Source of the DNA: Euglena gracilis
Taxonomy: Eukaryota
Assembly (NCBI GenBank): GCA_039621445.1
Contig: CP154954.1
Span: 1,984,001-2,048,000, forward strand
Length of the DNA stretch: 64,000 nucleotides
Reading direction: 5' to 3'
The notes under the pieces are model-generated. The model was not told the DNA's origin. It saw nothing but the letters and a program-made list of their open reading frames with translations, and did not search any database. Below are positions 1-24,679 of this stretch, in pieces; positions within the stretch are counted from its first letter, which is position 1, and each line of letters starts with the position of its first letter. Both the position numbers and the translations under genes were made by a program.

Positions 1-520
1 CTGGCCATTTTGGAACACCCTGTTTTGGCCTAAATGCCCTTAAATGTACTTTAGGGGGGGCGGGGTTGGGCCGAAACCTTGCCGGGACCATAACTTTGGC
101 CCCGTGGCCCGTTTGCCCTTGCTCTAAAAAGTTTTTCTAGGGTTTTTGGGGGTGCTCTCTCCAAAAAACTGCGGGGCTGGGAGTGCCTGGCCATTTTGGA
201 TCACCCTGTTTTGGCCTAAATGCCCTTAAATGTACTTTCGGGGGGCGGGATTGGGCCGAAACCTTGCCGGGACCATAACTTTGGCCCCGTGGCCCGTTTG
301 CCCTTGCTCTAAAAAGTTTTTCTAGGGTTTTTGGGGGTGCTCTTTCCAAAAAACTGCGGGGCTGGGGGTGCCCGGCCGTTTTGGAACACCCTGTTTTGGC
401 CTAAATGCCCTTAAATGTACTTTCGGGGGGCGGGGTTGGGGTCGAAACCTTGCCGGGGCCATAACTTTGCCGGGGCCATAACAATGCACGTTCCGGGGGC
501 GGGGTTAGCCAAAATCTGCT
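1..520. repeat. ~186-bp tandem satellite (about 2.7 units visible, runs off window start)
   Basis: CTGGCCATTTTGGA recurs at 1 and 187, variant near 372; unit contains GGCCCCGTGGCCCGTTTGCCCTTGCTCTAAAAA; same family as 10880-11120 and 16790-18645. Confidence 0.95.
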
Positions 521-551
521 TTTCATTACATTATATAATTAAAGACTGCTT

Positions 552-710
552 TTAATTACAGGCCACGAACACACCTGGCGCTTCAGGTCGACTTCTTCTC
601 TCACTTTTTCTGGGCGATGGACTTGGACTTGCACTCGGACTTGGACTTGCTTGACGGAAGTGGAAGTTTCTTCTTGTAACTTCCTTTTCCTTCCTTGGGG
701 TTCTTGGCAT
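552..710 (-). CDS. Putative first exon of a Helitron-borne gene (MPRTPRKEKEVTRRNFHFRQASPSPSASPSPSPRKS...)
   Basis: Hand translation from ATG at 710; first 10 aa identical to the ORF starting at 18816; same position relative to the element 5' end. Confidence 0.55.
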   Translation of the reverse strand: MPRTPRKEKEVTRRNFHFRQASPSPSASPSPSPRKSERRSRPEAPGVFVACN

Positions 711-1211
711 GTCAGGCCATACCCCTTACTTGGACTGCCCCTGGTGAGAAGAAACTCAATGTTGAAAACGGTGTACTTGCACAAATTTAAAGAATGTGAC
801 TTGACAATGGCCAAAAAAAACACACACCAAAAAGTCCACCACCTTCATTCGGCTCCGTACAATGTCAGCAATGTCAGATGACAACGGGTTTCATCTTCCG
901 CATGTAAAAATAAAAAACCTTAAAAAAACGGAGAGGGCTGCGTCAGCAAATGAGGCAAATTAGGAATTGCCAAAAAGCTATTGGCGAATGCTTTCTTCCT
1001 CTCCGAGCACCGAGCGACGTCAGAGTTTGGGACCGGGCACACAGGATGCACCGTCTCAGCGCCAATCCAACCAACCGGCAGGCGCTCGCCACTTCTCCTC
1101 CTTTGAGGCCAAATGCACCCCTACGCCGAAACTCGCGTCCGCATTCGCACGAACGCGGATTCCCGGCGCGAGCGTAGGGCGTTACATCGCGCCCGTTATA
1201 ATTTAGGGGGA

Positions 1212-1243
1212 CAAGCCGGGAGGCCCGTGCTAACGCACGGGCC
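1212..1243 (-). other. Helitron 3' terminus (hairpin + CTTG)
   Basis: GGCCCGTGC-taac-GCACGGGCC at 1222-1243; minus strand continues 6 nt then CTTG (1215-1212). Confidence 0.85.
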
Positions 1244-1447
1244 AAAGGACAGGGATCGCGCAAGGGTGCGCGAGCTGTACGTCGCGCGCACGGTCGCAGC
1301 AGTTAGGAATTGCGCAGAAGGCGTGGGGTTGTTAGTGTTGCTATTGCGTTGCAGCGTAGGTATTGCAGGTTTCGTCGGGGTTTGTGTTTGCTTTGTGTGG
1401 TGCATGTGTGTCTTGTCTCTTCTGACAGGAGCAGTATGTAGTGGAGG

Positions 1448-4400
1448 ATGTCCGTCGCCGCAGCTGCGGCGGAGGCTGCTGCTGCGGAGAGTGGCGGTGG
1501 AGTGTACGGAGATGGTGGTGGTGTGCTTCGCCTCAGTGATTCATGTCTGCAAGTGAGTGGAACGCAGTGGAACTGAGTGGAACTGATTCACGTGTGGAAT
1601 TGCTGTGGAGCAGTGTGGAAGTGTACAGCAGCAGCAGTGTTGATTGAGAGGACGTTTATTTTGTTACAGCAGCTGCAGAAGAAGGTGCAGCAGAAGTTCC
1701 TTTTGTACCTGGAGAAGGTGGAGAGGAAGCAGCCGGTGTGCGCTTTTGAGTCTTGGCAGCGCATGATGCGGGGTGTTGTATTGAAGTGCAGTGTGTGTAG
1801 TGTGTTGGTTTGAGCAGGTTTTGTTGTTTTTTTTGTAACCGCAGTTGCGGAGGAAGCAGCGGAAGAAGTTCCTCCTGTACCTGGCCAGGGGGGAGCGGAT
1901 GCAGCAGGTGTGTTGTGCTGCTGTACTGTGTTGACAGAAGTTTTCAGCTTTCGATGGGAGCCCGGTTGAAGGGTGTCAGAGACGTGCAAATGAGTGCTCT
2001 GTTTTCGATTTAATCAGCTGCATTTCGGAATGCTTCAGCAGCGTTGCTGAGAGTTGTTGGTTTTTTTTCTGCTGCAGAAGCTGCAGAAGCTGCAGAAGAA
2101 GTTGCTCCTCTACCCGGGGACGGGGGAGTGGTAGCCGCTGGTGTTGTGTTGCTGTAATGAGCTTTGGCTGAAAGCTTGGCTGAAGGAGCTGTGTAATGAT
2201 GTGGTGGAGTGTAGTGTAACGGTGTTGTTGGTGCAGGGCTGTGGTGCTGTTCCAGGGGAGTGAGCATGCCATGTTTTCGATTTAATCAGCTGCAGCGTTT
2301 TGACTGGATGTTCTGCTGTGCCTGTGGCAGCAGCCATGCATGATGTTACGGTTTGGGTTTTATAAGGTGCGCTGGTGAGGGCACGGTTTCAGTGGGTTTT
2401 CGGGTTTTTTGTTGTACCAGGAGCCGTAGAGGAAGCTGCGGCAGAAGTTGTTCCTGTGCTCGGGGATGGCAGAGCGGCAGCTGCTGGTGTGTTCTGCTGG
2501 TGCAATGTGTTGTGAGCAGTTTTGACTGACTGCATGCTTGAAGGAGCTGTGTAGGGTTCTGGTCATGTGCAACAGTGGGGTTGTTCCAGGGCTGTGGTGC
2601 TGTTTGTTGTTCCAGGGGGTGAAGATGCTGTAGCCCCTGTTGCAGAGGATGCACATCCTGCAGCAGCAGCTGCAGAGGGTGCAGGTGTGGGGTGGAATGC
2701 TTTGTCTTACTGAGCAGATGTAGTGGAAACGTGTGAGGAAGTTTTTGGGGGTTGCAGTGGTGGGAGCAAGTTTTCCATGCCGATTTGTTATCGTAGTTGC
2801 GGAAGCAGCTGTGGAAGATGTTGATGATGCTGTACTTGAAGGAGTGGAAGATGTGGATGGGGAGCGGCGGGAGCTGCGTCGGCGCCTGCGCAAGGGAACG
2901 CCGCAGCAGAACCTTGGTTTACCGGGTGTGGCTTTGATTTCCCTTTCCTTTTCCCTTGAGGTTCGCTTTTCGTTTGAGGTTGTGCTGGGAATTGAGGGGT
3001 GTGAGGGGTGGTGCTGTGTGGTGTTGTGTAGGGGGGGAAGTGGATTTTTTTGCGCGCAGGATCGAAGCGGAGGCGGCAGCTGGCGGCGCAGCGGGCTGCG
3101 GAGGAGGAGGCGGTGGTGGAGGAGCCGCCAGTGGGAGACGGTATGTTTCGTTTGTAGCGCGAGGTACGTAGGGTGGATAGTGCCGTTCCATGGGTGTTAG
3201 TCAGGTGTGTGTCTCTGTCTCTGGATATTATGTGTTACGCAGGGCTGGACCGGCGCCTGTGTGAGGCGCTGGTGGCGGTGCTGGACCTGCTGCCGGAGGA
3301 GCAGCGCGGTACGGCGGAGGAGCGGGGGCTGGCTGCGGGGCCGCTGGCCCAGCTGGTGCGGGAGCGGCTGCTCAAGAATCTTCAAAGGGTTGGATGGGGT
3401 TTGGAGGGTGTTTGGAGGGAGCTTGGAGGGAGTTTGAGGGCTTTGGAGGGAGTTTGTGGGGTTGGGATTTGAGAGTTGGGGTTTGCGCCGCTGTGACGCG
3501 GAAGATTTTTGTTTCTAAACGCGCTGGGGGAGCGCATCGTGGCCCAGGGTCAGGGGGACACGGCGGCGTACGTGGCGGCGATCGGCATCCGCAAGCAGCC
3601 TTGTTTTCAGAGGAGCTGATTAAATCAATGGGGACGGTTTCTATTTTGATGGTGTTTGTGTATTGGTGATTGACTGGGAAGCAGAGGAACTCCAGAAAAG
3701 TTGGTTAAATCGGTGGTCATTGTTTCCATTCTGTTGGCAGGGCATTGTTGGCAGGGTAATTGCAGTGTGCTGATTAAATCAGTGGGGAGTGTTTTCTTTA
3801 TGATGGTGTTTGTATTGCCCAGAGAAGCTGATTAAATCAGCGGTCCGAATTTCCATTGCGTTTTTAAGGGAATTGCATTGTGCTGGGGGGCGACGGTGTT
3901 TGTAAGTGTTTTCAGTTTGTATCTTGAGAATTGCTTCTTTATTGAAGGTGAGGCTGCTGCTGACGACTACTACTTCCCCGCCCTGGACGCCTACAGCGCC
4001 ATCCGGCCGAGGCTGCGGGCGGCGAAGGACATCCTCCACCGCCATAAGCGCGGCGAGGGGCCGGTCCCGCAACGTATGCCCCTGTTGTGTGTAAGTTTGT
4101 GTCTTTTGTATGTGTGGTTCCTTTTCTTCTGCTGTATTTATAGTCACTCTGTATTTACAGTGGGTCATGCCACACTTGACGTTTCTTGATTTCTCTTTCT
4201 TTTCAGGCTGTGTGCGGCAGGCGGCCGCAAGCAGCAGTACAGCGACGGGCGCAGCGCTGGCCTGCAGACAGGCTGTCTTTTGTAGTTTGTTGCATTAGAA
4301 CTTGGGAGTGCAAACGGAAGGACTGAGAATAATAGGAATTGATTGTAGTTGTAGTTGTTGATTGTAATTGTCAGTAGTTCAGCGTCCCGATTGCTGGCAG

Positions 4401-6296
4401 CAAGAGACAGCCTGTGGTTGGGCATTACTTTGTTCTGGCGCTGGGCCAGCGGCACTGCGTGGTGTACAGGTCAGGCCTTTTTTTAGCTGGGATGTTTTCT
4501 TGGGGGGGGGTGATGCGGGTGTCTTGGCTGACGTTAAAAGGGGGGGGGGGGCTGACGTGTGGTCTGAGCTGGCCCCGGTGGACCCCCTGGGCACGGCGGG
4601 GGCGGCGAAGCTGGCGGGGCTGCTGCTGGCGGAGCAGCGGCGGGAGGTGGCCTCGCTGCTGCTGTGGCCGCGGTACGACGGGGACACCGAACAGTTTTCT
4701 TCAGATTTGTGCCGGAAAGAGGAATTATTTTTGTTCTTTTTCGTTCTTTTGTTGCCGCAACAGATGAAAGAATTGCAGAAGTGCAGAAGTTCCTAGGTGG
4801 AAAAGCGAATTACTTCAGACGCCTGCTACCGGTTTCGAGTTGCATTGCGCTGAATGAGGAATGGAACGGCCTTTTTTTTCTGTGTCAGTGTTTAGTAATG
4901 GGAGGAAAACTGGAGGAGAGACGTGCGGCTTCGTCGCGGCGCGGCTGGCGGCGGCGATGATGGCGGTCCCCGAGGAGCAGTGGGCGATGGTGGCGGCGCA
5001 GCGGGAGCGCTACGCCACCACCGTGGCGGAGGCGGAGGAGTTTGGTGCGGGCTGCGGAGGAGTACTTGGAGAAGGCCCCGCGGTACGGGAGGGGTGTCGA
5101 CGGTAGGCGGCGTTCAGCGTGCTGGAAATGTCTGGAGTTGGATGGCGGGTGTGGAGTGTGGTTAGGGTTGTGATATTTGTGGAGTTGGGTGGTGAGAACA
5201 ATCAGCACGCTGTTGTTGGCAGCCGAACTACCACCCGGGAGCGACGCAAACAGGGTTTTTTTTTTTGTGAGAGATGATGTGCAAAAGTGGGGGGGTTTCT
5301 GGGTTAGGCTGTCACTTCCCTCCCCCTCTGTGCTGTGTTCACTGCTGGGTGTGAAAAAACCCTGGGCACAGCGGGTGGTGAGCCTGCTGCTGCGGGAGCC
5401 GCTTGCGCGGGCAGGGGATTCCTGTGGAATCAGGAAGTTCACTTCCTGGTTTTTTTTTTTTTTTCTGCTTTTTGAGAGACGTTGAAAACCAATGGGAAGC
5501 ATGGGAACAATGTGGGAACAATTTGTGACGATTTCAGCCTGTGCGCCAACTGGGTTTTTCTTTTGCATTGCTTTTGTTGGTTCTCTTTATGTCTTCGGAA
5601 TGAATTCCTGTTGTTGTGCGCTGCGAGCGGTGGTGACGTACCTTCGGGGCGCGCCGCTGAGCGAGCTGGCGCGCGTGCGGTATGCTGCTGCGATTGTTGT
5701 TTGGGCCTGTTTTTGGTGTTGTTGTTGTTATTGTTGTTTGCCCGCATCTTGTAGTTGCTCGCGTTTGCTTTGAATGTATTTTTTCTCGTGCCCTGATTAG
5801 CTGATTAAATCAGTGAATGTTGCTCGTGAACTGAAAAGCTGATGCAATCGATGATCCTGAAAAGCTGATTAAATCGGTGACCCCGAAAAGCTGATTAAAT
5901 CGGTGACCCTGAAAAGCTGAGTAAATCGGTGACCCTGAGAAGCTGATTAAATCGGTGACCCTTAAAAGCTGAGTCAATCGGTGCCCCTGAAAAGCTGATG
6001 AAAGTGGTGACCCTGAAAAGCTGATTAAATCGGTGAATCACCTGATCCTAATTCTCTGTTTTTTTGTCTCACAGGGGCAGCGGCTGCCTGCACGGCGTGG
6101 ACTTCGAGACGGCGGAGTTGGTGTGTCGGGGTCAGGCCTTTGCTTAGGAAGTTGCAACCCCCACCCGTGCGCGGAAGTGTGCTTTTGTGTTCCCCAGGTG
6201 GGTTTTAATGAAATGCCTGGCTGGGGTGTGCGGGGCAACCCCGTCGGCATGTACGTCGTCTACACGAAGTGGTGGGAAGGAGGAACGAAGCTTTGA
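1448..6296 (+). CDS. Multi-exon cargo gene of unknown function, antisense to RepHel (copy 1); exon structure only partly resolved
   Basis: GC-rich exon islands between T/G-rich introns: MSVAAAAAEAAAAESGGG, ERRELRRRLRKG, GLDRRLCEALVAVLDLLPEEQR, DDYYFPALDAYSAIRPRL, ETCGFVAARLAAAMM, GWGVRGNPVGMYVVYTKWWEGGTKL*. In-frame GT-AG intron 3141-3242. Pyrimidine tract + AG ending at 1428 just before the ATG. Confidence 0.6.
5830..6035. repeat. ~26-bp tandem repeat GAAAAGCTGATTAAATCGGTGACCCT (about 8 units; copy at ~23872-24077)
   Basis: Directly visible contiguous units with no unique spacers. Confidence 0.9.
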
Positions 6297-6639
6297 CCGT
6301 ACACCGTGACGCCGTGAGTACACTGTGAACGGTACCCCACTGTCCGCTGTGTGTACACTCTCCCTGTGGACCCTGAACCATGGACCCTGTCTTCCAACCC
6401 CTCCAGACCATCTCCAGACCACCTGTGCTGTACACCAGACTTCTCCTCTTCCGTGTACCTCTTCCCTGTACCCTCTTCCCTGTAACCTTCCCTGTACGCT
6501 GTGCACCTGCAAGTATTGCTTCAAATGAGTTTGACTTTGCAAATTATGTGGAAATGCAACTTTTTCTCTGAGTGGCCGAAACCCCCGGGGGGGGGGGGGA
6601 GTGACTGACGGGCGTCTCCCAAAAAAAGTGACTCACTCA

Positions 6640-8990
6640 TTTTACCTGGCCTCCTAACCCCCCCCGGGGTGGGTAAGCAATTGTATGGGTCCGTTGTCCG
6701 ATGAAGCTCGCCGTGGAGACTGCGGAACCTCGCACCGGAAAGACGCTGCTGGGGGTCTGCAGCACGGACGTCTTGACGTCGTCAGGTTGATCAGGCGTAT
6801 GGATTTGCTCGTGCTCGTGGTCGTGTGTATTCGCAGGGCAAAAATAGGTGGTCGTCTGGGTCTGGTTCGAGCCCCGGACAGGGACCAATCGCAGGGCAGA
6901 AATAAGGGGTCGTCCGGAGCAGGTCCGTGTTGACGTCGTTCCCGCCGTTTAGGCCGATGAACTTCGCCGGCTTGCACGCGGACGTCCGGAAAGGCGAAAA
7001 GGCTTTTTTTTCCGTGGTCGTCCGTGTCGTCGTGAAGGCCGATACAGCTGGTCAACGTACTGGCGGTGGTCCGTGAAAAGAATTTTTTTCCTGTCGCAAC
7101 CCTGTGTACACCCTTTCCTCATAAGTGACGGACGCACGGTTACGTGCGGCTCTGGATATCATCCGTCCTCACGTCCTGGTGAACGCCAGCTCGGGGAAGT
7201 GGTATGTGTAAACCACATTCTGGCTTCGCAGAAAAGCTGATTAAATCAATGGGGGCCTTCTGGCAAAATCCGTTCCGGCATGCCAATGCCAATGCCAATG
7301 CCAATGCCAAAAGCTGTTTGAATCGTTGGGGAGCATTTTTGAACATGCCTTTGAATCTGTGTGCATACAAAGGGTCCAACGCATACAAAGCGTCCAACGA
7401 ACTACTTGCCGGCATCGCAGAAAAAGCTGATTAAATCAGTGGGGGCCTTCCAGCAGAATGCGATGCCATGCCATGACATTTTTTGACATTTTTGAAAGCG
7501 GTGATTGGTCACCACCGGGCCGGCCAAATGGTAAGATGCTCATCCGCCGTCCCTGCAGACGCGGTTCGAGCCCCAGACGGAGACCATTCGCAGGGCAAAA
7601 ATAAGTGGTCGTCTGGATCTGGTTCGTCCTCAAGTCCGTGTCGTCGTGGACGTCGATGAACCTTGGCGGTGCGGTGAAAAGGATTTTTTCCCTGTCAGTA
7701 CGCTGTGTGTAACCTTCGCTGTCCTCACGTCTTCGTATTCGCCAGCCCGGTCAAGTGGTAAGATGCTCTGCCGCCGTCCCTGCGGACGCGGTTCGAGCCC
7801 CGGACAGGGACCATGCGCAGGGAAGAAATAAGTGGTCGTCCGGAGCAGGTCCGTCTTGACGTCGTTCCCGCCGTTCAGGCCGATGAACTTCGCCAGCTTG
7901 CAGGCGGACGTCCGGAAAGGCGAAAAGGCTTTTTTTCCGTGGTCGTGTGTGCGGCGGTTTGAAGCCATGCGAAAAAAGCTGATTAAATCATGTGTTCTTT
8001 TTTCGAAATTTCCGCATGCCGACGAAAAGCTTTTTTTTTCGTGCTTGTGTGTGCAGGGGTCTGAACACGGTTCGAACCTCGGACACCACGGACCACGGAC
8101 ACGGTCGGACACCACGGACCACGGACCATGAACAGCACGGACAGGGTTCGAACCTCGGACAGGTACCATTTACAGGGCAGAAAGAAGCGTTCGTCATCCG
8201 CCGTCCCTGCGGACGGGGTTCGAGCCCCGGACAGGGACCATTCGCAGGGAAGAAATAAGTGGTCGTCTGGATCTGGTTCGTCGTCACGTCCGTGTCGTCG
8301 TGGATGCCGATGAACCTTGTCAGCGTGCAGGCGGTCTGGTGAAAAGGATTTTTTCTCTGTCACCACGCTGTATGTACCCTTCCCTGTCCTCACCTCTTCG
8401 TATTCGCCAGCCCGGTGCAGTGGTAAGAAGATGCTCCGCCGCCGTCCCTGCGGACGCGGTTCGAGCCCCGGACAGGGACCATTCGCAGGGAAGAAATAAG
8501 TGGTCGTCCGGAGGAGGTCCGTCTTGACGTCGTTCCCGCCGTTCAGGCCGATGAACTTCGCCAGCTTGCAGGCGGACGTCCGGAAAGGCGAAAAGGCTTT
8601 TTTTCCGTGGTCGTGTGTGCGGCGGTTTGAAGCCATGCGAAAAAAGCTGATTAAATGATGTGTTCTTTTTTCGAAATTTCCGCATGGCGACGAAAAGGTT
8701 TTTTTTCCGTGCTTGTGTGTGCAGGGGTGTGAATATGGTTCGAACCTCGGACACCACGGACCACGGACACGGTCGGACACCACGGACCACGGACCACGGA
8801 CACCACGGACAGGGTGCGAACGTCGGACAGGGACCATTTACAGGGCAGAAATAAGTGCTCGTCCGGAGCAGGTCCGTGTTGACGTCGTTCCCGCCGTTCA
8901 GGCCGATGAACTTCGCCAGCTTGCAGGCGGACGTCCGGAAAGACGAAAAGGTTTTGTTTCGTGTTCGTGTGCGCGGGGGTATGAAGGGCC
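6640..8990 (-). repeat. Tandem array of ~190-nt exon-like units (KLAKFIGLNGGNDVKTDLLRTTTYFFPANGPCPGLEPRPQGRR...), truncated by the deletion
   Basis: Repeated unit with strongly G/C-ending codons in one minus frame; copy of 24680-27031. Confidence 0.7.
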
Positions 8991-9939
8991 CCTGGAGGGA
9001 AGAGGCTCGCTGCACCTGCTGTCGGCGCTGCCGTCGCGCACGCTGCAAGCGCCGGTGCCAGTGCACTTGCACGTGCAGTCACCAAATTCACTGAAACGAA
9101 GAGCCTTCCTTTCACAACGGCACAAACAGCCGCATCAAAAACCACAGAAACAAAAACAGGGGGAAAAAGTCACACCTACAAACCCAAAGCAGCAGCAGTG
9201 ACAGGCAATGAATTGGCTCCCTTCAGCTTCAACAACAAAAACAGAGGAAAAAAGTCACAGCTACAAAAACAAAGCAGTGAGAGCCAATAAATTCGATCCC
9301 TTCAGCTTCAATGAATGCACGTCCAGCTGGCAACGTCACCGTCGTTGAGGCCGCTGCTGACAACCATGCAGGAGCACTAATGCAAAATCCAAAATGCAAA
9401 CGACCGTCTAAAAAAACCCGATTAAAACGGCATTTTGGGTTTTCTCTTTTGCATCTGAAGAAAGCTGATTAAATCATTCTTGGGTTTCTGTCGCTCTTCC
9501 TTTCTCTGTTCCCTCTCTGTTATTTGGTTATCGCATGCAATACAGCACGATTGTTCACCGGCGACGGACAACAGGTCTGCTATTTCTGCTAGTTTTGTTC
9601 AACAATATCACTGCTACAATTCCTTTTACCATTCAAATGAAGAATATTACAAAACCCCCAAAGCCCCAAAAAAGTAATAACCCAAAAAAAATACAAAAGA
9701 ACATCAACAAAAAGAACCCCTACAGCCTGCAATCGTCCTGGAGGCTGCCCCCCACGCACAGCCGCCGCCGCTGCCCCGGTCGACGGCGTGGTGGACGATG
9801 ACGCCTCCTCATCTGCAAAGAGAGAGTAAGACATTAAGAGAGAGCACCTACACAGGTCTTTTCCAAAAAAAACAATTAAAACGTCCAGCAGCAATTTTGG
9901 GACACTGTGACTTGAGACGAAGAGAAACAATATCCTGGC

Positions 9940-10870
9940 AAATGCAGTGGCAAATCCTCAATGTTTGCCCCAGCTTCCAAAGCGATCAGAGCAGGGCCGT
10001 GGTGATGGGTGCAGCCATCACCGTGACCTCCGCGTGTAGGAACAACCTGCGCAGAAGAGAGAAAACACCGCACAGACAAAAACACAGAAACACGTCACCC
10101 AACTGCACAAACCTCAAACGCCCTGTGGTTGTTAGCCCTTGCTCTGCTGACAAACAACACGCGAAGTGGCAAATCCTCAATGTTTGCCCCAGCATCCAAA
10201 GCGATCAGAGCAGCACCATGGTGATGGATACAGCCATCTTGGTGAGCTCGGCGTGCAAGAACAACCTGCGCAGAACAGAGAAAACACCGCACCTCACCCA
10301 ACTGCACACACAGTCAAACACTGCACAAACCTCAAATCTGTGCCTGTCTGAAACAGGTGCGGAGACGTGCGGTTTCATTGCTCCGTAAACAGCAATGTAG
10401 AGGAGCTGGTGCGGCGCATGGAGGAGCACCTACAGAAGTCTTTTTGAAAAACAAACCTTAAAACCTCGAGCAGCAATTTCAAAACAGGGCGATGATTTAA
10501 TCAGCACCATGTCCAGCCAACCACAAACTACAACGCACAAAAAAGTGAACTGAACAAAAAAGAGATACGCCGTACGCGAAGTGGCAAATCCTCAATGTTT
10601 GCCCCAGCATCCAAAGCGATCAGAGCAGGGCCATGGTGATGGGTACAGCCATCTTGCAAGAACAACCTGCACAGAACGGAGAAAACACCGCAGAAAAACG
10701 TATCACCCAACTGCACACACAGTCAAACACTGCACAAACCTCAAAGGTGCGCCTCTCTTCCCTGGTTAAAACACGTGCGGAGACGTGCGGTTTCATCGTC
10801 GCTCCGCAAACAGCAATGCGAAGGAGCTGGTGCGGCGCACGGAGGACACACACCCACACACTGCACACAC
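9940..10870. repeat. Degenerate triplication (GTGGCAAATCCTCAATGTTTGCCCCAGC...), possibly duplicated minus-strand exons (HHHGPALIALDAGANIEDLP)
   Basis: Copies start near 9947, 10166 and 10581. Confidence 0.75.
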
Positions 10871-10879
10871 TGCTCTCGT

Positions 10880-11120
10880 TCCAAAATGTACATTCGGGGG
10901 ACCTTGCCAGGGCCACAACTTTGGCCCCGTGGCCCGTTTGCCCTTGCTCTTAAAATTTTTTCTGGGATTTTTGGGGGTACTCTTTCCAAAAAAACTGGGG
11001 GCTGGGGCTGGTTGGCCAGTTTTGGACATCCAGTTTTGCCTAAATGCTCCAAAATGTACATTCGGGGGGTTTGGTTGGGGCCGAAACCTTGCCGGGGCCA
11101 TAACTTTGGCCCTGTGGCCC
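10880..11120. repeat. 1.3 units of the ~180-bp satellite
   Basis: GGCCCCGTGGCCCGTTTGCCCTTGCTCT and AATGTACATTCGGGGG match the array at 16790-18645. Confidence 0.9.
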
Positions 11121-11477
11121 GTGATTTAATCAGCTCCAACTTGGACTTGCCAGCCAATTAGCTGCGCTGGAGGAGTACCTGCACATGGCTGCAGAAGCAC
11201 ATTTCAAAATTTTTCCAAAAAACCAAAAAACAGAAAATGTCTTTTCCAAAAAAACAAAAAAAAAACAGCTCGAGCTGCCTGCTGCATGTTTCCCAATTTC
11301 CCAAACCCACGGACCGAAAACCACATCACGCCAGCCAAACGCAGAGGAAGAAAAAAGTGAACCACAAAACACACCATTGTCAAACAATCTTCTTCTCACT
11401 GCTCTCCCTTCGAATTCTTCTGCACCTGAGGAGGGATATAATAAAGAAATAAATGTACGCCTTTCACTTGCCAGCAC

Positions 11478-11636
11478 ACCAAAAGCTTCATTCCATGTTC
11501 TGGAGGGAACATGCTGCCGCGGCGACCGTCGCGGTGTAGAATCTTGACTCGGACTTCTCCGACTGTCGGGAGTTCCGGGAGATCGTGGTGAACAGTATCT
11601 CTCCCTTTCCTTCCTCTCCTTCCCCTTCTTTGTCAT
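11478..11636 (-). CDS. Putative first exon of element C gene (MTKKGKERKERER...SPRSP...SRTWNEAFG)
   Basis: Shares SRTWNEAFG and basic/SP-rich composition with the exon at 18816; 3' boundary approximate. Confidence 0.5.
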
Positions 11637-12044
11637 CGCTCCATCCGGACTTCTCCGCCACCTGTAAACAATCATGATCGATCAGTGTTGCTGTCCACGT
11701 GCAAACCTGCGCGCTGCGCTCTCATTCTCGCTCACATCAACTCAAATTCGTTCATGGCGAACCGCTGTGAGAAAAACGGGAGGGATACAAAAACCCGTAA
11801 GGCATCGCCCGACCCCGCGCTCCGGCATCGACCGAATTTAACGGGTATCTCACGCCAGACGCCAAAGCACGATTTCGGACCCCGGTCAGCGGACGCAGCG
11901 TCCGATCGGCCACCGATCGGGACCTCCGGCCCCGGCCCACGCGCCCGGGTTGTGGGCAAAACCCCCCCTACGGGCCCGGAACGCGACGGAATCGCGGGAG
12001 TCGCGTAGCGGAATGATTACAGGGCTCCGGTTATGGTAGGGGGA

Positions 12045-12077
12045 CAAGCGGCGGGGGCCCGTGCTGACGCACGGGCC
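12045..12077 (-). other. Helitron 3' terminus (hairpin + CTTG)
   Basis: GGCCCGTGC-tgac-GCACGGGCC at 12056-12077, 7 nt, CTTG. Confidence 0.8.
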
Positions 12078-13709
12078 GGATAGCACGATCCAAGGGCTAC
12101 ATTTATAACCCAGGCACGTCCTCCAGCTCCCCCGGAAAGCGAAAAATGTGCATTTTGGTTGGCTGATTTGGTGGCTTGGCTTCAAGTCCCTTGCTTAACT
12201 AAATATAGCTCCCATTGCATCCCTCCGAGGTATGCACCCGAAGCCCGTAGGACCCGTGCGTGAGCACGGGCCGGAAGTAGCCCCAGCTAGCTACATTTAT
12301 TTCCAAAGCGCGCTCCCTCGGATACGAAAAATCTGCATTTTGGGTGGCCGATTTGCTTGATTAGCTCCCAAAGCATCCCTCCGTGATATGCAGCCCCCCC
12401 CTCCCCGTAGCTGTGCACGGAGGCCCGTGCTGACGCACGGCGGCGTGTGGTGGCCGGGAAAATATCGAGCACCACAGCTCCAAATGGCAGGGATTTGGGG
12501 CGGCCTGGTGATTTCGGGGCACCTAGGGCTTGTCCATCCAAAAGAGCAGTATTTTTGCTATCGCCGCCCTCGAAAACCCCCTTCCGGAGCGCGTCACAGG
12601 GCATCCACGCCACACCCATTCAGAAATATGCCACCCCCCGGCTTGGAGGAGTGGTTTTGTGCCGCATGGGAGTGCCCATGAGAGTGCGCCGGCGTTTCTT
12701 GAGGGCTCTGATGTGTCGGTCAGCTAAAGCAAAGTTTTTTTTTTTGCAATCCCGGCCCTCGAAAATTCCCTTCCGGAGCACATCAGGGGCCGCCATTGCA
12801 CACCCCTTCCGAGATATGCCACCGCCCCCGCCTAAATACCGACAAATAGCCCAGGAAATTGAGGTATAGAGGAGGTTGAAAAACCTCTACCTCTACCGCT
12901 GTCCCTCGCCCTCCATGCAGGAAGTCGTTTTTTTGGAATCGCGTCCGTCTAAAACCCTCTGCCGGAGCACATTAGGGGTCCTCCGCAGCACGCAGGTTGC
13001 CCCCCCCGTCCTGGAAGGGGGGCTTTATGTTCCCTGCGGTTTGAGGGCAGCCTACTACGACGGCCAGCCTCAGGTTACGCCTTCAAGATGAGAGTTATAA
13101 AAAATATCTCATACCTTCAGGAAAAAAAACTGAGAAAAAAAACTGAGCCTCGGAAAACAAAAGAAAACAAATGTCTGACATTCCAGATGCGCCCGATTTT
13201 TTAATCTGAAAAAGCTGATTAAATCAGCGGTGGTTTTTTTTGTCACCGCTCACCCTTTCTCCCTGTCCTTGACTTTTCCTGCCCCCCCCCCTGCTGATTG
13301 CAAAAAAAGGCCAAGTCCAGAAAAGCGACAAAGCAAAATGCGTGTGATGTGCGTCATCCACCTCAATCAGCATTCGCATTCGCATGACCTGTGAGGAGCA
13401 AACAAAAAATGCAGAACGCAGCATCAAAACAGCATCCAAAAAAAGAAAACAAAGATGAAACTGCTTCTTTTCTTTAAAAAAAAGAAGTTTACAAATGGTG
13501 GAGTCACGGGACACGGGACAAAATCGAAAAAAAGTCTGCCCCGTAATTCTGAAAAAAGCCCAGGTCCAAAAAATACCCCAGGGTTGGATGGGAAGCCTTG
13601 GGGGGTCGAACCCCCCCTCCCGACACGGAGGGGGGGGTGGGTCGGACCCCCCCCTCCTACCTCGAAACTGAGTGGGGGCCGATTTTTCGATTTCATGGAC
13701 GGGCAAAGG

Positions 13710-14023
13710 GCCAGAAAATGCGGGAAATTTTGGCTGGACCCCCCCTGGGTTTTTTCAGAAAATGCGGTTGGGAAATTCTTGGCTGGACCCCCCCCCCGCA
13801 ATCCAAAAAATACGTTTGGGAAATTTTGGGACCCACCTGGGTTTTTCAAAAAAAAAACAACGGTTGAGAAATTTTGGCTGGACCCCCCCTGGGTTTTTCA
13901 GAAAATGCGGTTGGGAAACTTTGGCTGGACCTCCCCTGGGTTTTTCAAAAAATACGGTTGGGAAATTTTGGCTGGACCCCCCCCCGGTAATCCAAAAAAA
14001 AAAAAACAAAAAAAAAAAATAAA

Positions 14024-14062
<39 letters not shown>

Positions 14063-15700
14063 GGGGAAATTTGGGCTGGACCCCCCCGCAATCCAAAAAA
14101 TACGGTTGGGAAATTTTGGGACCCACCTGGGTTTTTCAAAAAAAAAAACGGTTGAGAAAATTTGGCTGGAAATTTTGGCTTTTTTCAGAAAATACGGTTG
14201 GGAAATTTTGGCTCTACCCCCCCTGGGATTTTCAGAAAACGCGGTTGGGAAAGTTTGGCCCCTGGGTTTTTCAAAAAACACGGCTGTGAAACTTTGGCTG
14301 GAGCCCCCTGGGTTATTTTTTGAAAATGCGGTTGGGAAATTTTGGCAGGACCCCCCTCTGTAATCCAAAAAATGCGGTTGGGAAATTTTGGCTGGACCCC
14401 CCCTGGGATTTTCAGAAAATGCGGTTGGGAAATTTTTTGCTGGACCCCCCCTGGGATTTTCAGAAAATGCGGTTGGGAAATTTTGGCTGCCCCCCCCCCC
14501 CCCGTAATCCAAAAAAATGCGGTTGGGAAAATTTGGGACTCACCTGGGTTTTTCAAAAAATGCGGTTGGGAAAATTTCGGACTCACCTGGGTTTTTCAAA
14601 AAAAACGGTTGGGAAATTCTGGCTGGACCCCCCTGGGATTTTCAAAAAATGCGGTTGGGAAATTTTGCCTGGACCTCCCGTGGGTTTTTCAAAAAATACG
14701 GTTGGGAAATTTTGGCTGCACCCCCCCCCCGTTAATCCAAAAAAATGCGGTTCGGAAATTTTGGCTGGACCCCCCGGGATTTTCAGAAAATGCGGTTGGG
14801 AAACTTTGGCTGGACCTCCCCTGGGTTTTTCAAAAAATACGGTTGGGAAATTTTGGCTGGACCCCCCCCCGTAATCCAAAAAATACGGTTGGGAAATTTT
14901 GGCTGGACCCCCCCGCAATCCAAAAAATACGGTTGGGAAATTTTGGGACCCACCTGGGTTTTTCAAAAAAAAAAACGGTTGAGAAAATTTGGCTGGAAAT
15001 TTTGGCTTTTTTCAGAAAATACGGTTGGGAAATTTTGGCTCTACCCCCCCTGGGATTTTCAGAAAACGCGGTTGGGAAAGTTTGGCCCCTGGGTTTTTCA
15101 AAAAACACGGCTGTGAAACTTTGGCTGGAGCCCCCTGGGTTATTTTTTGAAAATGCGGTTGGGAAATTTTGGCAGGACCCCCCTCTGTAATCCAAAAAAT
15201 GCGGTTGGGAAATTTTGGCTGGACCCCCCCTGGGATTTTCAGAAAATGCGGTTGGGAAATTTTTTGCTGGACCCCCCCTGGGATTTTCAGAAAATGCGGT
15301 TGGGAAATTTTGGCTGCCCCCCCCCCGTAATCCAAAAAAATGCGGTTGGGAAAATTTGGGACTCACCTGGGTTTTTCAAAAAATGCGGTTGGGAAAATTT
15401 CGGACTCACCTGGGTTTTTCAAAAAAAACGGTTGGGAAATTCTGGCTGGACCCCCCTGGGATTTTCAAAAAATACGGTTGGGAAATTTTGGCTGGACCTC
15501 CCCCGTAATCCAAAAAAATGCGGTTCGGAATTTTGGCTGGATCCCCCCTGGGATTGCAGAAAATGCGGTAGGGAAATTTTGGCTGCCCCCCCCCCGTAAT
15601 CCAAAAAATGCGGTTTGGAAATTTTGGTTGGACCCCCCCCTGGGATTTTCCTAAAATGCAGTTGGGAAATTTTGGCTCGACCCCCCATGGGTTTTTCAAA
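13710..15700 (+). repeat. ~42-46-bp degenerate minisatellite with an 827-bp higher-order duplication and a long poly-A tract (~13994-14059)
   Basis: Unit GAAAATGCGGTTGGGAAATTTTGGCTGGACCCCCCCTGGGATTTTCA; identical ORFs at 14185/15012 and 14320/15147 give the 827-bp offset. Confidence 0.92.
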
Positions 15701-16430
15701 AAGCCCAGGGGGATCCAGCCAAATTTCCCCCCATACTTCGGAAAAATAGCCCAGGGGGGTCCAAGAATTTCCCCCCGTAATCGTAATCCTGAAAAAAAGC
15801 CCAGGGGGGCCCAACAAAAATTTCCCCCCGTTATCGTATTCCTGAAAAAAAGCCCAGGGGGTCAAAAATACCCCCCCCCCCGTAATCCTGGAAAAAAAAG
15901 GCCCAGGGGGGTCCAAAAATTTCCCCCCGTAATCCTGAAAAAAAGCCCAGGGAGTCCAAAAAATTCTCCCGTAATCCTGCAAAACAGCCCAGGGGAGTTT
16001 CAGCCAAATTTCCCCCGTAAGCCCAGGGGGGTCCAGCTAAAATTTTTCCCGTAATCCTGAAAAAAAGCCCAGGGAGGCCAAAAACTTACCCCCCTGTAAT
16101 CCTGAAAAAAGTCCAGGGGGGTCCAAAAATTTCCCCCCGTAATTAGGATAAAAGCCCAGGGGCTCCAAAAATTTCCCCCGTGATCGTGAAAAAAAAAGCC
16201 CAGGTGGGTCCAAAAATTTCCCCCGTAATCGTAATCCTGAAAAAGAGCCCAGGGGGGTCTGAAAATCCCCCCCGTAATCCTGAAAAAAAGTCCAGGGGGT
16301 CCAAAAAATTCGCCCCGTAATCCTGAAAATAAACCCGGGGGGGGTCCAACCAAATTTCCCCCCGTGATTCGTAAAAAAAGCCCAGGGAGTCCAAAAATTT
16401 CCGCCCGTAATCCTGAAAAAAAAGCCCAGG
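15700..16430 (-). repeat. Related ~45-bp minisatellite in the opposite orientation
   Basis: Reverse complement of the unit reads TTTTTCAGGATTACGGGGGGAAATTTTTGGACCCCCCTGGGCTTT, alignable to the forward unit at 13710-15700. Confidence 0.85.
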
Positions 16431-16789
16431 AAAACTGGCATGGGGTGGGTCACGGGAACGTGCAGAGTGTGGCTTTGCCAACAGGAGGTAGAGACCACCT
16501 TATGGTGCTCCTCCCCTTTGGGCAAGACCACCACTCCAGCACTGTTGCCCGAAAAAAGCCGCTCCCCCTACCTCTGGGCCTAGGTTGCCCGAGCAGGGAG
16601 CGACGGGGGGATTTTGAAAATTTCCAACCCACACGCCTCTCCGGTCCCAACCCTTCTGTCCTTCTCGTCATTTCATATGAGAGGGGCCCAACCCATAGAT
16701 TGTTGATCCCTTGGCTGAGTAAATCCCTGCAGATGGGGGGGACGATAATCCCAACACCAAATCGCAAATCACAAAAAAGGGTTTTTAAG

Positions 16790-18645
16790 AATGCTCTTTC
16801 CAAAAAACCGGGGGGCTGGGGCTGGCTGGCTGGCCAGTTTTGGCCTGAATGCCCTGAATGTGCATTGTAGGGGGGGTTGGGGCCGAAAACTTGCCAGGGC
16901 CATAACTTTGGCCCCGTGGTTCGTTAGCCCTTGCTCTAAAAATTTTTCTGGGGTTTTGGGGGGTGCTCTTTCCAAAAAACTGGGGGGCTGGGGCTGACTG
17001 GCCAGTTTGGGTCACCCTGTTTTGGCCTAAATGCCCTGAAATGTACATTCGGGGGGCGGGTTGGCCAAAAACCTTGCCGGGGCCATAACTATGGCCCTGT
17101 GGCCCGTTTGCCCTTGCTCTAAAAAAATTTTCTGAGGTTTTTGGGGGTGCTCTTTCCAAAAAACTGGGGGGCTGGGGCTGACTGGCCAGTTTGGGTCACC
17201 CTGTTTTGGCCTAAATGCCCTGAAATGTACATTCGGGGGGGGGGGCCGGTTGGCCAAAAACCTTGCCGGGGCCATAACTATGGCCCCGTGGCCCGTTTGC
17301 CCTTCCTCTAAAAAAATTTTCTGAGGTTTTTGGGGGTGCTCTTTCCAAAAAACTGGGGGGCTGGGGCTGACTGTCAAAATTTGGTCACCCAGTTTTGCCT
17401 AAATGCCCCGGAATGTACATTGTGGGGGGGGGGGGTGGGGGCCGAAAACTTGCCGGGGCCATAACTTTGGCCCCGTGGTTCGTTAGCCCTTGCTCTAAAA
17501 AAATTTTCTGGGGTTTTTGGGGTTGCTCTTTCTAAAAAAACTGCTTGGCTGGGGCTGACTGTCAAAATTTGGACACCCAGTTTTGGCCTAAATGCCCGGA
17601 ATGTACATTGTGGGGGGGGTTGGGTCCGTAAACTTGCCGGGGCCATAACTATGGCCCCGTGGCCCGTTTGCCCTTGCTCTAAAAAAATTTTCTGGGGTTT
17701 TTGGGGTTGCTCTTTCTAAAAAACTGCTTGGCTGGGGCTGACTGTCAAAATTTGGACACCCAGTTTTGGCCTAAATGCCCGGAATGTACATTGTGGGGGG
17801 GGGTTGGGTCCGTAAACTTGCCGGGGCCATAACTTTGGCCCCGTGGCCCGTTTGCCCTCGCTCTAAAAATTTTTTCTGGGGTTTTTGGGGTTGCTCTTTC
17901 TAAAAAACTGCTTGGCTGGGGCTGACTGTCAAAATTTGGACACCCAGTTTTGGCCTAAATGCCCGGAATGTACATTGTGGGGGGGGTTGGGTCCGTAAAC
18001 TTGCCGGGGCCATAACTTTGGCCCCGTGGCCCGTTTGCCCTCGCTCTAAAAATTTTTTCTGGGGTTTTTGGGGGTGCTCTTTCTAAAAAACTGCTTGGCT
18101 GGGGCTGACTGTCAAAATTTGGACACCCAGTTTTGGCCTAAATGCCCGGAATGTACATTGTGGGGGGGGTTGGGTCCGTAAACTTGCCGGGGCCATAACT
18201 TTGGCCCCGTGGTTCGTTAGCCCTTGCTCTAAAAAAATTTTCTGGGGTTTTTGGGGGTGCTCTTTCCAAAAAACTGCTTGGCTGGGGCTGACTGTCAAAA
18301 TTTGGACACCCAGTTTTGGCCTAAATGCCCGGAATGTACATTGTGGGGGGGGGGGTTGGGTCCGTAAACTTGCCGGGGCCATAACTTTGGCCCCGTGGCC
18401 CGTTTGCCCTCGCTCTAAAATTTTTTTCTGGGGTTTTTGGGGGTGCTCTTTCCAAAAAACTGCTTGGCTGGGGCTGACTGTCAAAATTTGGGCACCCAGT
18501 TTTGGCCTAAATGCCCGGAATGTACATTCGGGGGGGCGGGTTGGCCAAAAACCTTGCCGGGGCCATAACTATGGCCCCGTGGCCCGTTTGCCCTCGCTCT
18601 AAAAGAATTTCTGAGGTTTTTGGGGGTGCTCTTTCCAAAAAGCCC
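16790..18645. repeat. ~180-bp tandem satellite, about 10 units
   Basis: GGGCCATAACT(T/A)TGGCCCCGTGG recurs every ~178-185 bp. Confidence 0.95.
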
Positions 18646-18671
18646 CGGCTGTGTGGCAAAGGTTTTGGTCA

Positions 18672-18816
18672 TACCGAAAGCTTCGTTCCACGTCCTCGAA
18701 GATGGTGATCTTGGGGATCTTCTCGGGCTTGGGGTGTCCTGCGGTGCTTGGGCTTGTCCGCGTGTGTGGAAAATCTTCCTTTCCTTCTCCTTTTCCTTCC
18801 TCGGAGTTCGCGGCAT
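18672..18816 (-). CDS. Putative first exon of element B gene (MPRTPRKEKEKERKIFHTRG...SPRRSPRSPSSRTWNEAFG)
   Basis: ORF track 18481..18816; N-terminus shared with exon at 710, C-terminus shared with exon at 11636; 3' boundary approximate. Confidence 0.55.
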
Positions 18817-19246
18817 TGGGATCAGCCCAAAGTCTCAGCCCTTCGAGGCATCCTCCCTCATGAAAGCCCTGAATGAAACATTGAAAAGGGTGAGGGATGA
18901 GACACAGGACAACCTCTCCATTGACGGAGCCAGAAGCTGCAAGACGACAGCCGGAACCCTCACATTCTGGGCTTAAAGCTGCAAGGGAATGGAAACAAAG
19001 ATTCCGAATTAGGAATTCCCTAAATAGGCTGTAAACCTTTACACTCCAACTCGTGAACGTATTCAAAGCACAGTTCGGGACCGGGCATGCGACCTGCACG
19101 AAACCGAGGCGGTTCTGACGAACCCTGTCCCGTCGGCGGGTGCTGCTGCGTTGCCGCCAAATGTACCCCTACGGCGCACATTCGCGTCCGCATTCGCCGA
19201 AAGCGCGACGGAATCTGTCCACACGGCTCGGGTTATGGTTAGGAGA

Positions 19247-19279
19247 CAAGCCGGTGGGGCCCGTGCTGACGCACGGGCC
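19247..19279 (-). other. Helitron 3' terminus (hairpin + CTTG)
   Basis: GGCCCGTGC-tgac-GCACGGGCC at 19258-19279, 7 nt, CTTG 19250-19247. Confidence 0.85.
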
Positions 19280-19483
19280 AAAGGACAGGGATCGCGCAAG
19301 GGTGCGCGAGCTGTTCGTCGCGCGCACGGTCGCAGCAGTTAGGAATTGCGCAGAAGGCGTGGGGTTGTTAGTGTTGCTATTGCGTTGCAGCGTAGGTATT
19401 GCAGGTTTCGTCGGGGTTTGTGTTTGCTTTGTGTGGTGCATGTGTGTCTTGTCTCTTCTGACAGGAGCAGTATGTAGTGGAGG

Positions 19484-22400: not shown

Positions 22401-24338
22401 ATTGTAATTGTCAGTAGTTCAGCGTCCCGATTGCTGGCAGCAAGAGACAGCCTGTGGTTGGGCATTACTTTGTTCTGGCGCTGGGCCAGCGGCACTGCGT
22501 GGTGTACAGGTCAGGCCTTTTTTTAGCTGGGATGTTTTCTTGGGGGGGGGTGATGCGGGTGTCTTGGCTGACGTTAAAAGGGGGGGGGGGGCTGACGTGT
22601 GGTCTGAGCTGGCCCCGGTGGACCCCCTGGGCACGGCGGGGGCGGCGAAGCTGGCGGGGCTGCTGCTGGCGGAGCAGCGGCGGGAGGTGGCCTCGCTGCT
22701 GCTGTGGGCCGCGGTACGACGGGGACACCGAACAGTTTTCTTCAGATTTGTGCCGGAAAGAGGAATTATTTTTGTTCTTTTTCGTTCTTTTGTTGCCGCA
22801 ACAGATGAAAGAATTGCAGAAGTGCAGAAGTTCCTAGGTGGAAAAGCGAATTACTTCAGACGCCTGCTACCGGTTTCGAGTTGCATTGCGCTGAATGAGG
22901 AATGGAACGGCCTTTTTTTCTGTGTCAGTGTTTAGTAATGGGAGGAAAACTGGAGGAGAGACGTGCGGCTTCGTCGCGGCGCGGCTGGCGGCGGCGATGA
23001 TGGCGGTCCCCGAGGAGCAGTGGGCGATGGTGGCGGCGCAGCGGGAGCGCTACGCCACCACCGTGGCGGAGGCGGAGGAGTTGGTGCGGGCTGCGGAGGA
23101 GTACTTGGAGAAGGCCCCGCGGTACGGGAGGGGTGTCGACGGTAGGCGGCGTTCAGCGTGCTGGAAATGTCTGGAGTTGGATGGCGGGTGTGGAGTGTGG
23201 TTAGGGTTGTGATATTTGTGGAGTTGGGTGGTGAGTGAGAACAATCAGCACGCTGTTGTTGGCAGCCGAACTACCACCCGGGAGCGACGCAAACAGGGTT
23301 TTTTTTTTTGTGAGAGATGATGTGCAAAAGTGGGGGGGTTTCTGGGTTAGGCTGTCACTTCCCTCCCCCTCTGTGCTGTGTTCACTGCTGGGTGTGAAAA
23401 AACCCTGGGCACAGCGGGTGGTGAGCCTGCTGCTGCGGGAGCCGCTGGCGCGGCAGGGGATTCCTGTGGAATCAGGAAGTTCACTTCCTGGTTTTTTTTG
23501 ATGTGACTGCTTTTTGAGAGACGTTGAAAACCAATGGGAAGCATGGGAACAATGTGGGAACAATTTGTGACGATTTCAGCCTGTGCGCCAACTGGGTTTT
23601 TCTTTTGCATTGCTTTTGTTGGTTCTCTTTATGTCTTCGGAATGAATTCCTGTTGTTGTGCGCTGCGAGCGGTGGTGACGTACCTTCGGGGCGCGCCGCT
23701 GAGCGAGCTGGCGCGCGTGCGGTATGCTGCTGCGATTGTTGTTTGGGCCTGTTTTTGGTGTTGTTGTTGTTATTGTTGTTTGCCCGCATCTTGTAGTTGC
23801 TCGCGTTTGCTTTGAATGTATTTTTTCTCGTGCCCTGATTAGCTGATTAAATCAGTGAATGTTGCTCGTGAACTGAAAAGCTGATGCAATCGATGATCCT
23901 GAAAAGCTGATTAAATCGGTGACCCCGAAAAGCTGATTAAATCGGTGACCCTGAAAAGCTGAGTAAATCGGTGACCCTGAGAAGCTGATTAAATCGGTGA
24001 CCCTTAAAAGCTGAGTCAATCGGTGCCCCTGAAAAGCTGATGAAAGTGGTGACCCTGAAAAGCTGATTAAATCGGTGAATCACCTGATCCTAATTCTCTG
24101 TTTTTTTGTCTCACAGGGGCAGCGGCTGCCTGCACGGCGTGGACTTCGAGACGGCGGAGTTGGTGTGTCGGGGTCAGGCCTTTGCTTAGGAAGTTGCAAC
24201 CCCCACCCGTGCGCGGAAGTGTGCTTTTGTGTTCCCCAGGTGGGTTTTAATGAAATGCCTGGCTGGGGTGTGCGGGGCAACCCCGTCGGCATGTACGTCG
24301 TCTACACGAAGTGGTGGGAAGGAGGAACGAAGCTTTGA
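19484..24338 (+). CDS. Multi-exon cargo gene of unknown function (copy 2)
   Basis: Near-identical to 1448-6296; differs by small indels in exons that may be sequencing errors or decay. Confidence 0.6.
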
Positions 24339-24679
24339 CCGTACACCGTGACGCCGTGAGTACACTGTGAACGGTACCCCACTGTCCGCTGTGTGTACAC
24401 TCTCCCTGTGGACCCTGAACCATGGACCCTGTCTTCCAACCCCTCCAGACCATCTCCAGACCACCTGTGCTGTACACCAGACTTCTCCTCTTCCGTGTAC
24501 CTCTTCCCTGTACCCTCTTCCCTGTAACCTTCCCTGTACGCTGTGCACCTGCAAGTATTGCTTCAAATGAGTTTGACTTTGCAAATTATGTGGAAATGCA
24601 ACTTTTTCTCTGAGTGGCCGAAACCCCCGGGGGGGGGGGGAGTGACTGACGGGCGTCTCCCAAAAAAAGTGACTCACTC

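Follow-up and report, generated by a model that had tools for sequence, protein, structure and literature searches.

Helitrons joined head to tail without spacer in a 64-kb stretch of Euglena gracilis DNA

Helitrons that abut one another have been described from plants and from bats. In maize, Du et al. 2008 (PMC2267711) reported two different Helitrons that abut as CTAG|TC, which PCR on several lines indicated to be two independent insertions, and proposed two models for the origin of such a join, one in which the target is made up of the host A and the 5' T of the resident element, and one in which it is made up of the 3' G of the resident and the host T. From Myotis, too, it was reported that the 3' end of one Helitron may directly adjoin the 5' end of a different one, with the same insertion models (PMC4778049). 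The head-to-tail junctions described earlier from Myotis (Pritham and Feschotte 2007, as cited in PMC2267711) were read as tandem repeats of one element generated by rolling-circle replication, and for the tandem Helitron arrays of plants (Xiong, Dooner and Du 2016, as cited in PMC11934779) an origin as rolling-circle concatemers of a single element is likewise given. Here, we describe a train of Helitrons in a 64,000-nt stretch of Euglena gracilis DNA (assembly GCA_039621445.1, contig CP154954.1, positions 1,984,001 to 2,048,000; hereafter the window, with coordinates counted from its first letter), all members of which lie in a single orientation on the minus strand. In 5' to 3' order on that strand the members are referred to as D (38433-19247), C (19246-12045), B (12044-1212) and A (1211 to beyond position 1).

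The three junctions of the train have one layout, which on the minus strand reads GGCCCGTGC-GTYA-GCACGGGCC, followed by 6-7 nt, by CTTG and, with zero spacer, by TC. The junction of B with A (1195..1243) consists of a hairpin (1222-1243), the spacer TCCCGG, CTTG (1212-1215) and TC (1211-1210); that of C with B (12030..12077) of a hairpin (12056-12077), the spacer CCCGCCG, CTTG (12045-12048) and TC (12044-12043); and that of D with C (19232..19279) of a hairpin (19258-19279), the spacer CCACCGG, CTTG (19247-19250) and TC (19246-19245), all on the minus strand. Directly after CTTG, the three downstream elements start with TCCCCCTAAATTATAAC, TCCCCCTACCATAAC and TCTCCTAACCATAAC. Each hairpin has a 9-bp stem and a 4-nt loop and ends 6-7 nt before CTTG (3/3 ends), with single-stranded DNA fold energies of -13.2 to -14.3 kcal/mol (z = -3.1 to -4.1 versus 200 shuffles). 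Within the window the pattern GCACGGGCC-N5-8-CTTG is matched exactly three times, at 1212-1230, 12045-12064 and 19247-19266, each time on the minus strand, and 0 of 100 dinucleotide-preserving shuffles of the window contained any. An earlier reading of the letters without database searches (the sequence-only reading) had reported these three junctions with correct coordinates and letters, and the precise CTTG|TC joins that it described after a 9-bp hairpin and 6-7 nt are present at all three. Furthermore, end profiles derived from the 5' and 3' ends at the three junctions and searched across the window (nhmmer) matched only the junction ends, together with two degenerate 3'-like modules inside C. 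The zero-spacer junctions thus hold all three recognisable 5' ends and all three full 3' ends of the window, and no solitary Helitron end adjoining non-Helitron DNA was found by these searches within the 64 kb.

The members of the train are genuine Helitrons, as the sequence-only reading had assigned them, since a gene for a Rep-helicase fusion (RepHel) lies on the same strand, the 5' ends begin with TC, a hairpin is subterminal and terminal inverted repeats are lacking. They are best explained as canonical (Helitron1-type) rolling-circle transposons: TC directly follows CTTG at 3/3 5' ends, a palindromic hairpin lies near 3/3 3' ends, and the predicted coding blocks of D comprise a Rep (HUH, two-tyrosine) fused to a PIF1-like helicase. 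The 3' termini depart from a strict CTRR, all three being CTTG, which is a documented variant of the Helitron 3' end in HELPO2 (PMC4289320) and is on record for maize and for de novo ends of Helraiser (PMC4778049). As for terminal inverted repeats, the first 60 nt compared with the reverse complement of the last 60 nt gave a score of 6 for both B and C, one that 405 and 471 of 500 shuffles, respectively, also reached. Helitron2 and Helentron elements carry asymmetric terminal inverted repeats, and Helentrons have an endonuclease domain in addition. We rejected both classes for this train, in view of the lack of inverted terminal similarity and of the finding that only Helitron_like_N, PIF1 and Pif1_2B pass the cut-offs in the RepHel open reading frames (ORFs).

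A conserved block spans both sides of every junction, so that conservation alone cannot locate the boundary, and we placed it at CTTG|TC by definition and by comparison of B with D. The alignment of these two elements extends only 8-9 nt past CTTG, after which the downstream A and C differ at most positions; the 3' end of C has only its last ~35 nt (hairpin to CTTG) in common with B and D; and A, B and C resemble one another at their 5' ends from TC onwards, through scattered motifs over ~190 nt. These three features indicate that the junctions are boundaries between separate mobile units. On a rival interpretation, hairpin-CTTG-TC would be an internal, reiterated motif of one very large composite element, or the joins would have been created in assembly from repeated ends. 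Such an interpretation would agree with the lack of a solitary end in the window, with a conserved block that cannot place the boundary, and with the fact that no listed contig of the sequencing runs treated below bridges 1211/1212 by 31 letters on each side. Against it stand the CTTG ends documented in other organisms (PMC4289320, PMC4778049), the stop of the high B/D identity at the junction, and one loose contig end in which sequence like a 5' end is preceded by CAA, not TTG; moreover, the shared block of ~50 nt would probably be too short to mislead a long-read assembly. We consider it extremely improbable that no mobile-unit junction exists here.

Element D (19247..38433, minus strand) is a putatively autonomous Helitron of at least 19,187 bp, with its 3' end at 19247 and its 5' part cut off at 38433. 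Above the curated Pfam cut-offs, its ORFs gave Helitron_like_N (E = 5.5e-25 and 2.4e-19), PIF1 (E = 1.2e-50) and Pif1_2B, and tblastn with two full-length homologues recovered five collinear blocks, from 36993 to 31627, that correspond to residues 44-1406 of a 1,436-aa protein. The gaps between these RepHel coding blocks (31627..36993, minus strand, from Pfam and tblastn) are consistent with introns, and D appears to be coding-competent. In its translations the stretches GLPHAHIL (HUH-like), KYLHKYIHKG, GGCGKTF and VIDEATM, and YxxxY-like motifs, are visible by eye. A large protein collection held 1,109 relatives of the RepHel at E <= 0.001, the best of which were only 35-41% identical, and there is thus no close relative on record. 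A 15-nt tandem repeat (35904-35962) is situated just upstream of a RepHel block, and a 26-nt tandem repeat is present in both B (5831-6036) and D (23873-24078); by eye, the two repeat consensus sequences have the core GCTGATTAAATC in common.

Element B (1212..12044, minus strand; 10,833 bp) is non-autonomous and of D-type without the RepHel region. In the self-comparison of the window, B 1203-8990 matched D 19239-27031 (99.2% over 7,808 columns) and B 8988-9831 matched D 37590-38433 (99.8% over 844 columns); B is thus an internal-deletion derivative of the D-type, from which 10,558 bp encoding the RepHel (D 27032-37589) were lost. No Pfam domain was found in the B ORFs scanned. The deletion joint (8988-8990) shows a 3-nt overlap (microhomology). 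Over the last 21 nt (1212-1232 / 19247-19268) B and D have three differences, namely T/C in the hairpin loop and two in the spacer, and one further difference over the ~170 nt upstream of the loop, the overall divergence being ~0.8%. On comparison of the two elements, the spacer between hairpin and CTTG seems hypervariable.

The remaining members are rich in tandem repeats. Element A (1..1211, minus strand) is the 5' part of a non-autonomous Helitron that runs off the start of the window, so that only its first 1.2 kb are visible; it has its 5' TC at 1211, and its 5' end matches the 5'-end profile with E = 1.2e-44. Element C (12045..19246, minus strand; 7,202 bp) is non-autonomous, consists mostly of tandem repeats and matches the end profiles at both ends. 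Its minisatellites (13722-16430) comprise ~43 copies of a 46-47-nt unit (13722-15702), then ~16 copies of a 43-nt unit (15698-16430). By eye, the 43-nt consensus is the reverse complement of the 46-47-nt one, an arrangement that would form a large imperfect palindrome, and a run of 66 A lies at 13994-14059. The 3' terminal module of C (~190 nt) is present in two further degenerate copies (12241..12443, minus strand; 12241-12376 and 12419-12440), which were detected by nhmmer (E = 4.8e-8 and 0.006), with hairpin copies, whose folds were computed, at 12251-12272 and 12422-12443. A satellite of 183-185 bp occurs in A (1-469, 2.5 copies seen), B (10901-11122, one monomer) and C (16834-18641, 9.8 copies), in each case 0.6-0.9 kb from the 5' end. 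A derivation of this satellite from a head-to-tail junction was considered and rejected: two 183-bp monomers, aligned locally in both orientations with the three junction regions, scored 14-19, and shuffles gave means of 16.5-17.2 with maxima of 24-28.

When the satellite is set aside, the likeness of A to C is confined to 1108-1157 / 19156-19205 (86%, 51 nt) and to 29 nt (A 682-710), and their 5' 200 nt align poorly. In all, only ~100 nt of 5' end and the satellite are common to the two, which are separate, more distant non-autonomous relatives of the D-type. By these comparisons the four units form one terminus-sharing group, composed of a putatively autonomous element, its deletion derivative and two non-autonomous relatives. 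The sequence-only reading, which had spoken of four different elements, was right in keeping A and C apart, but four different elements are not present: B and D are of one family (99.2% and 99.8%), all four share termini, and A, B and C share the 183-bp satellite monomer.

No adjacent units are alike beyond their termini, since C intervenes between the two that do resemble each other, B and D. Since neighbouring units differ, a homomeric array or concatemer of one circle is excluded (as had been argued from the letters alone), and the different neighbours of B and D speak against a simple tandem duplication as well. At all three junctions we found the heteromeric arrangement known from maize, in which different elements in the same orientation are joined by a 3' tetranucleotide that passes directly into a 5' TC. 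A segmental history, by tandem duplication of a unit made of a D-type and a satellite-type element, or by unequal crossing-over between satellite arrays, with subsequent divergence through deletion and satellite turnover, would be in keeping with the alternating pattern (junctions 1 and 3 being 18,035 bp apart), with the 7.8-kb direct repeat of 99.2% identity and with the 183-bp satellites in both A and C. Yet it predicts a resemblance of A to C about as close as that of B to D, whereas A and C have no more than 51 nt (86%) and a further 29 nt in common once the satellite is set aside; with so large a gap between the two pairs, a duplicated two-element unit becomes very unlikely. It would, in addition, account for at most one of the three junctions, and we regard a segmental origin as highly improbable.

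Beyond the window, the 22-nt hairpin pattern was found in public collections at four metagenome-contig loci and one viral-contig locus, all of which lack a CTTG|TC behind the hairpin and show no similarity outside the hairpin itself, and we consider these five loci unrelated. Among the sequencing runs of one organism, 20 of the 24 listed rows contain part of 11200-13200, and at least 14 listed runs contain half or more of the words of this interval (each at least 0.69 of the sampled words); no RNA run containing it was among the rows listed. Contigs of four runs (X1, X2, X3 and X13) were compared with 470-5700 only (704 records fitted; 32 of 725 pieces and 24 of 157 loose ends listed). These contigs are short and break at the repeated termini, and their summed depth, which is not a copy number, peaks in two bins around the junction in three of the four runs. 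One X13 contig (place 1216) carries an A-like 5' end through CTTG and beyond it a further 22 letters, which correspond to the reverse complement of a variant hairpin whose loop and spacer are unlike those of B; this hints weakly that a fourth type of junction exists at another place in that genome. One loose end (X1, X2 and X3; place 1168) has a B-like 5' end with CAA, not TTG, as its three visible upstream letters, and may, on this slight indication, represent a solitary 5' end.

We favour, with a probability of roughly 0.55, the explanation that the junctions arose by separate, successive insertions, each at the exact boundary of a resident element. Self-targeted insertion, which the sequence-only reading had put forward, is also the best reading here, although it is not new, and nothing at this locus shows the accompanying 'cassette-like array' to have a function. 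All members share one set of termini, so that presumably one RepHel serves them. Random insertion into ~40 kb would almost never strike the boundary base three times; three exact hits on this base can hardly be due to chance, and the boundary was probably either targeted or made by the chemistry of transposition. Observed are the elements, the way in which they are related, and how many and how precise the junctions are, and it is the route and the order of insertion that we infer. By the simplest route, the normal A|T target would be used: the host A before the resident, together with the 5' T of the resident, would recreate AT, a newcomer inserted there would come to lie with its CTTG directly against the TC of the resident, and the train would grow upstream. 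The A|TC bond would at the same time be the phosphodiester bond that RepHel nicks to start the transposition of the resident, and as such it could be a favoured site of strand transfer. Each internal CTTG|TC join, moreover, has the form of a Helitron circle junction, and any interval of the train from a TC to a CTTG could thus in principle be mobilised.

Several observations weigh against successive boundary insertion, or fit it poorly. Neither outer end of the train falls within the window, so that the predicted flanking A (upstream) and T (downstream) are not visible; no empty site or presence/absence polymorphism was seen; and the B|A junction (1211/1212) is not bridged, with 31 letters on each side, by any contig in the listed 32 of 725 pieces. 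The alternative target (the 3' G of the resident and the host T) would yield the same junction, and the sequence does not tell the two target models apart. Independent insertions explain neither the alternation of D-type, satellite-type, D-type and satellite-type members nor the 18,035 bp between junctions 1 and 3, and a divergence of B from D at three of the last 21 nt, as compared with ~0.8% overall, is not what simple copying of one master predicts. Lastly, one short B-type contig of X1 runs five letters (TC and three more) past CTTG before it ends, which would also fit a composite unit amplified whole.

Such amplification could come about by co-mobilisation, the other origin put forward in the sequence-only reading, if RepHel started at an upstream TC, bypassed one or more hairpin-CTTG terminators and stopped at a later one, trains of two or more elements being multiplied as composites. 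The X1 contig looks as if every copy with this 3' end had the same sequence after CTTG; intact Helraiser carried flanking DNA in ~11.7% of events, for which a 'read-through' model was given (PMC4778049); and the degenerate extra 3' modules of C suggest that terminators are reiterated in tandem in this Helitron family. However, terminator bypass presupposes an abutting pair and hence leaves the origin of the junction unexplained, the two D-type copies of the window are followed downstream by partners that differ, none of the junction pairs is present there a second time as a whole, and the hint from the contigs is one short record. We consider this origin unlikely.

The form of the junctions also invites a circle-based explanation, since a 5' TC joined to a 3' tetranucleotide is what the circle junction of a Helitron looks like (PMC4778049). 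The 3' OH of one element, released at its terminator, might have been joined to the RepHel-linked 5' end of another (either because two donors were processed together or by a template switch at the conserved ends) and the product then integrated. The conserved block on both sides of each junction would suit such hetero-concatemers, as would the unusual variability between B and D of the spacer next to the join. Nevertheless, we have no direct evidence of this kind of joining here, the comparison literature on Helitron junctions, in the parts available to us, describes none, a train of four members would need rare events to be repeated, and sequential insertion gives the same junctions by the normal reaction; we judge a hetero-concatemer to be improbable.

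Successive insertion at resident boundaries, our preferred explanation, can be extended to a rule for the whole family: RepHel would target the 5' nick site of residents, the Helitrons would live for the most part in mixed trains that keep growing and leave host genes untouched, and the junctions would act like circle junctions, so that neighbouring runs are excised, reshuffled and moved together as a self-assembling cassette-like array. In this far-reaching form we find the claim doubtful.

The visible limit of the train is set by an inverted-duplicated repeat complex of 23.9 kb (38434..62305, no strand assigned), which lies outside the train and interrupts D. Its inverted arms (38433-41462 / 62305-59336, 41759-43404 / 58932-57241 and 46891-50891 / 55264-51260) are 95-99% identical, and its two ends are mutually inverted 14-nt sequences. 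Pfam gave only sub-threshold matches to RVT_3 (RNase H-like; E = 0.0058 and 0.014) in the complex and no PDB relative was found; a YYDD stretch was seen by eye. The GC skew inside the complex reaches +0.56 and -0.51 per 2 kb (41500-47100 and 55500-59200), and the long proline-rich open frames of these same two regions, several of them overlapping, had no Pfam match. B and D cease to resemble each other precisely where the complex begins (38433/38434), and the simplest explanation is that the complex, or a rearrangement between its inverted arms, removed the 5' part of D. The sequence beyond the complex (62306-64000) is unlike B 9832-12044 and unlike the 5'-end profile, and the 5' end of D was not found anywhere in the window. 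If the 5' part of D was indeed removed in this way, B 9832-12044 would be the normal 5' region of the D-type family, and a full D-type element would measure ~21.4 kb. At the edge of the sequence shared by B and D (9814-9831, 38416-38433), a pyrimidine tract ending in CAG immediately precedes ATGAGGAGG; it resembles a 3' splice site, and the region upstream of the RepHel gene may thus be spliced.

The window was also inspected for captured genes and for further features. Pfam was run on 52 of the 120 ORFs of at least 110 aa that start left of 31600 and on 15 long ORFs, the remaining 68 of the 120 being ORFs of B that recur in D, frames within minisatellites and ORFs scanned among the 15; no Pfam family outside RepHel was found in the scanned ORFs. 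Neither Rfam (at the gathering threshold) nor ARAGORN gave matches in the window. The subterminal 5' motif (CGTAGGGG...CATTTGGC) was considered as a dinoflagellate spliced leader and rejected, as the 21-nt leader motif gave 0 matches at up to 3 mismatches.

The choice of targets by Helitrons, and the building of chimeric elements that shuffle genes, are still argued from few examples, and the locus offers a clean natural case, with three perfect junctions in a row that join an apparently coding-competent autonomous element, a deletion derivative of it and two relatives rich in satellite. If most ends of the family were to sit in such junctions genome-wide, this would indicate boundary-directed (self-targeted) integration; and if integration were boundary-directed, a simple route would lead from trains to chimeric Helitrons, through either a deletion that removes a junction or the bypass of a terminator.

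Heteromeric abutting Helitrons have been described before, and the locus does not represent a new mechanism. Our survey of the literature on tandem, arrayed and adjacent Helitrons returned no mixed train of four, which is weak evidence, as most subscription journals fall outside its coverage. The Helitron fragments of Drosophila telomeres (PMC6581046) were set aside as a comparator, being randomly oriented according to the accessible part of that report. From Paramecium (10.1101/2025.11.06.686955) and from Xenopus, in Heli2Xen (PMC12001565), non-autonomous copies have been reported that, like A and C, are largely minisatellite between conserved ends; the sections of these reports available to us describe no zero-spacer junctions between different elements, and Heli2Xen is of Helitron2-type. 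HELPO2 of Pleurotus ostreatus (PMC4289320) resembles the elements of this train in its CTTG 3' end, its subterminal hairpin and its RepHel (a likeness of the RepHels by description only) but, unlike here, no train is described in the part of that report at hand. The Helraiser circle (PMC4778049, PMC5876387) has in common with our junctions a 5' TC joined to a 3' tetranucleotide, a hairpin terminator and CTTG as a possible 3' end; there, as described, both ends belong to one element on an episomal circle, whereas here different elements are joined in a chromosome. The concatemers reported from plants likewise consist of Helitron units in one orientation, yet the present array is heteromeric, and the head-to-tail cases cited for Myotis were read as repeats of one element, whereas the neighbours in this train differ. 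The closest likeness is with the pair of maize as it is described, which shares with our locus different Helitrons in the same orientation, a tetranucleotide that passes directly into TC, and a G/T junction without a host A. The maize pair comprises two elements joined at CTAG and is backed by PCR polymorphism, whereas the train, known from its sequence alone, comprises at least four elements with three junctions at CTTG and, unlike the pair, includes two members of one family (the putatively autonomous element and its deletion derivative). Taken together, these comparisons place the locus within a phenomenon known from maize and bats, to which it adds a well-resolved example, in a train that is longer and cleaner than the published pair and that belongs to a lineage without a close RepHel relative on record.

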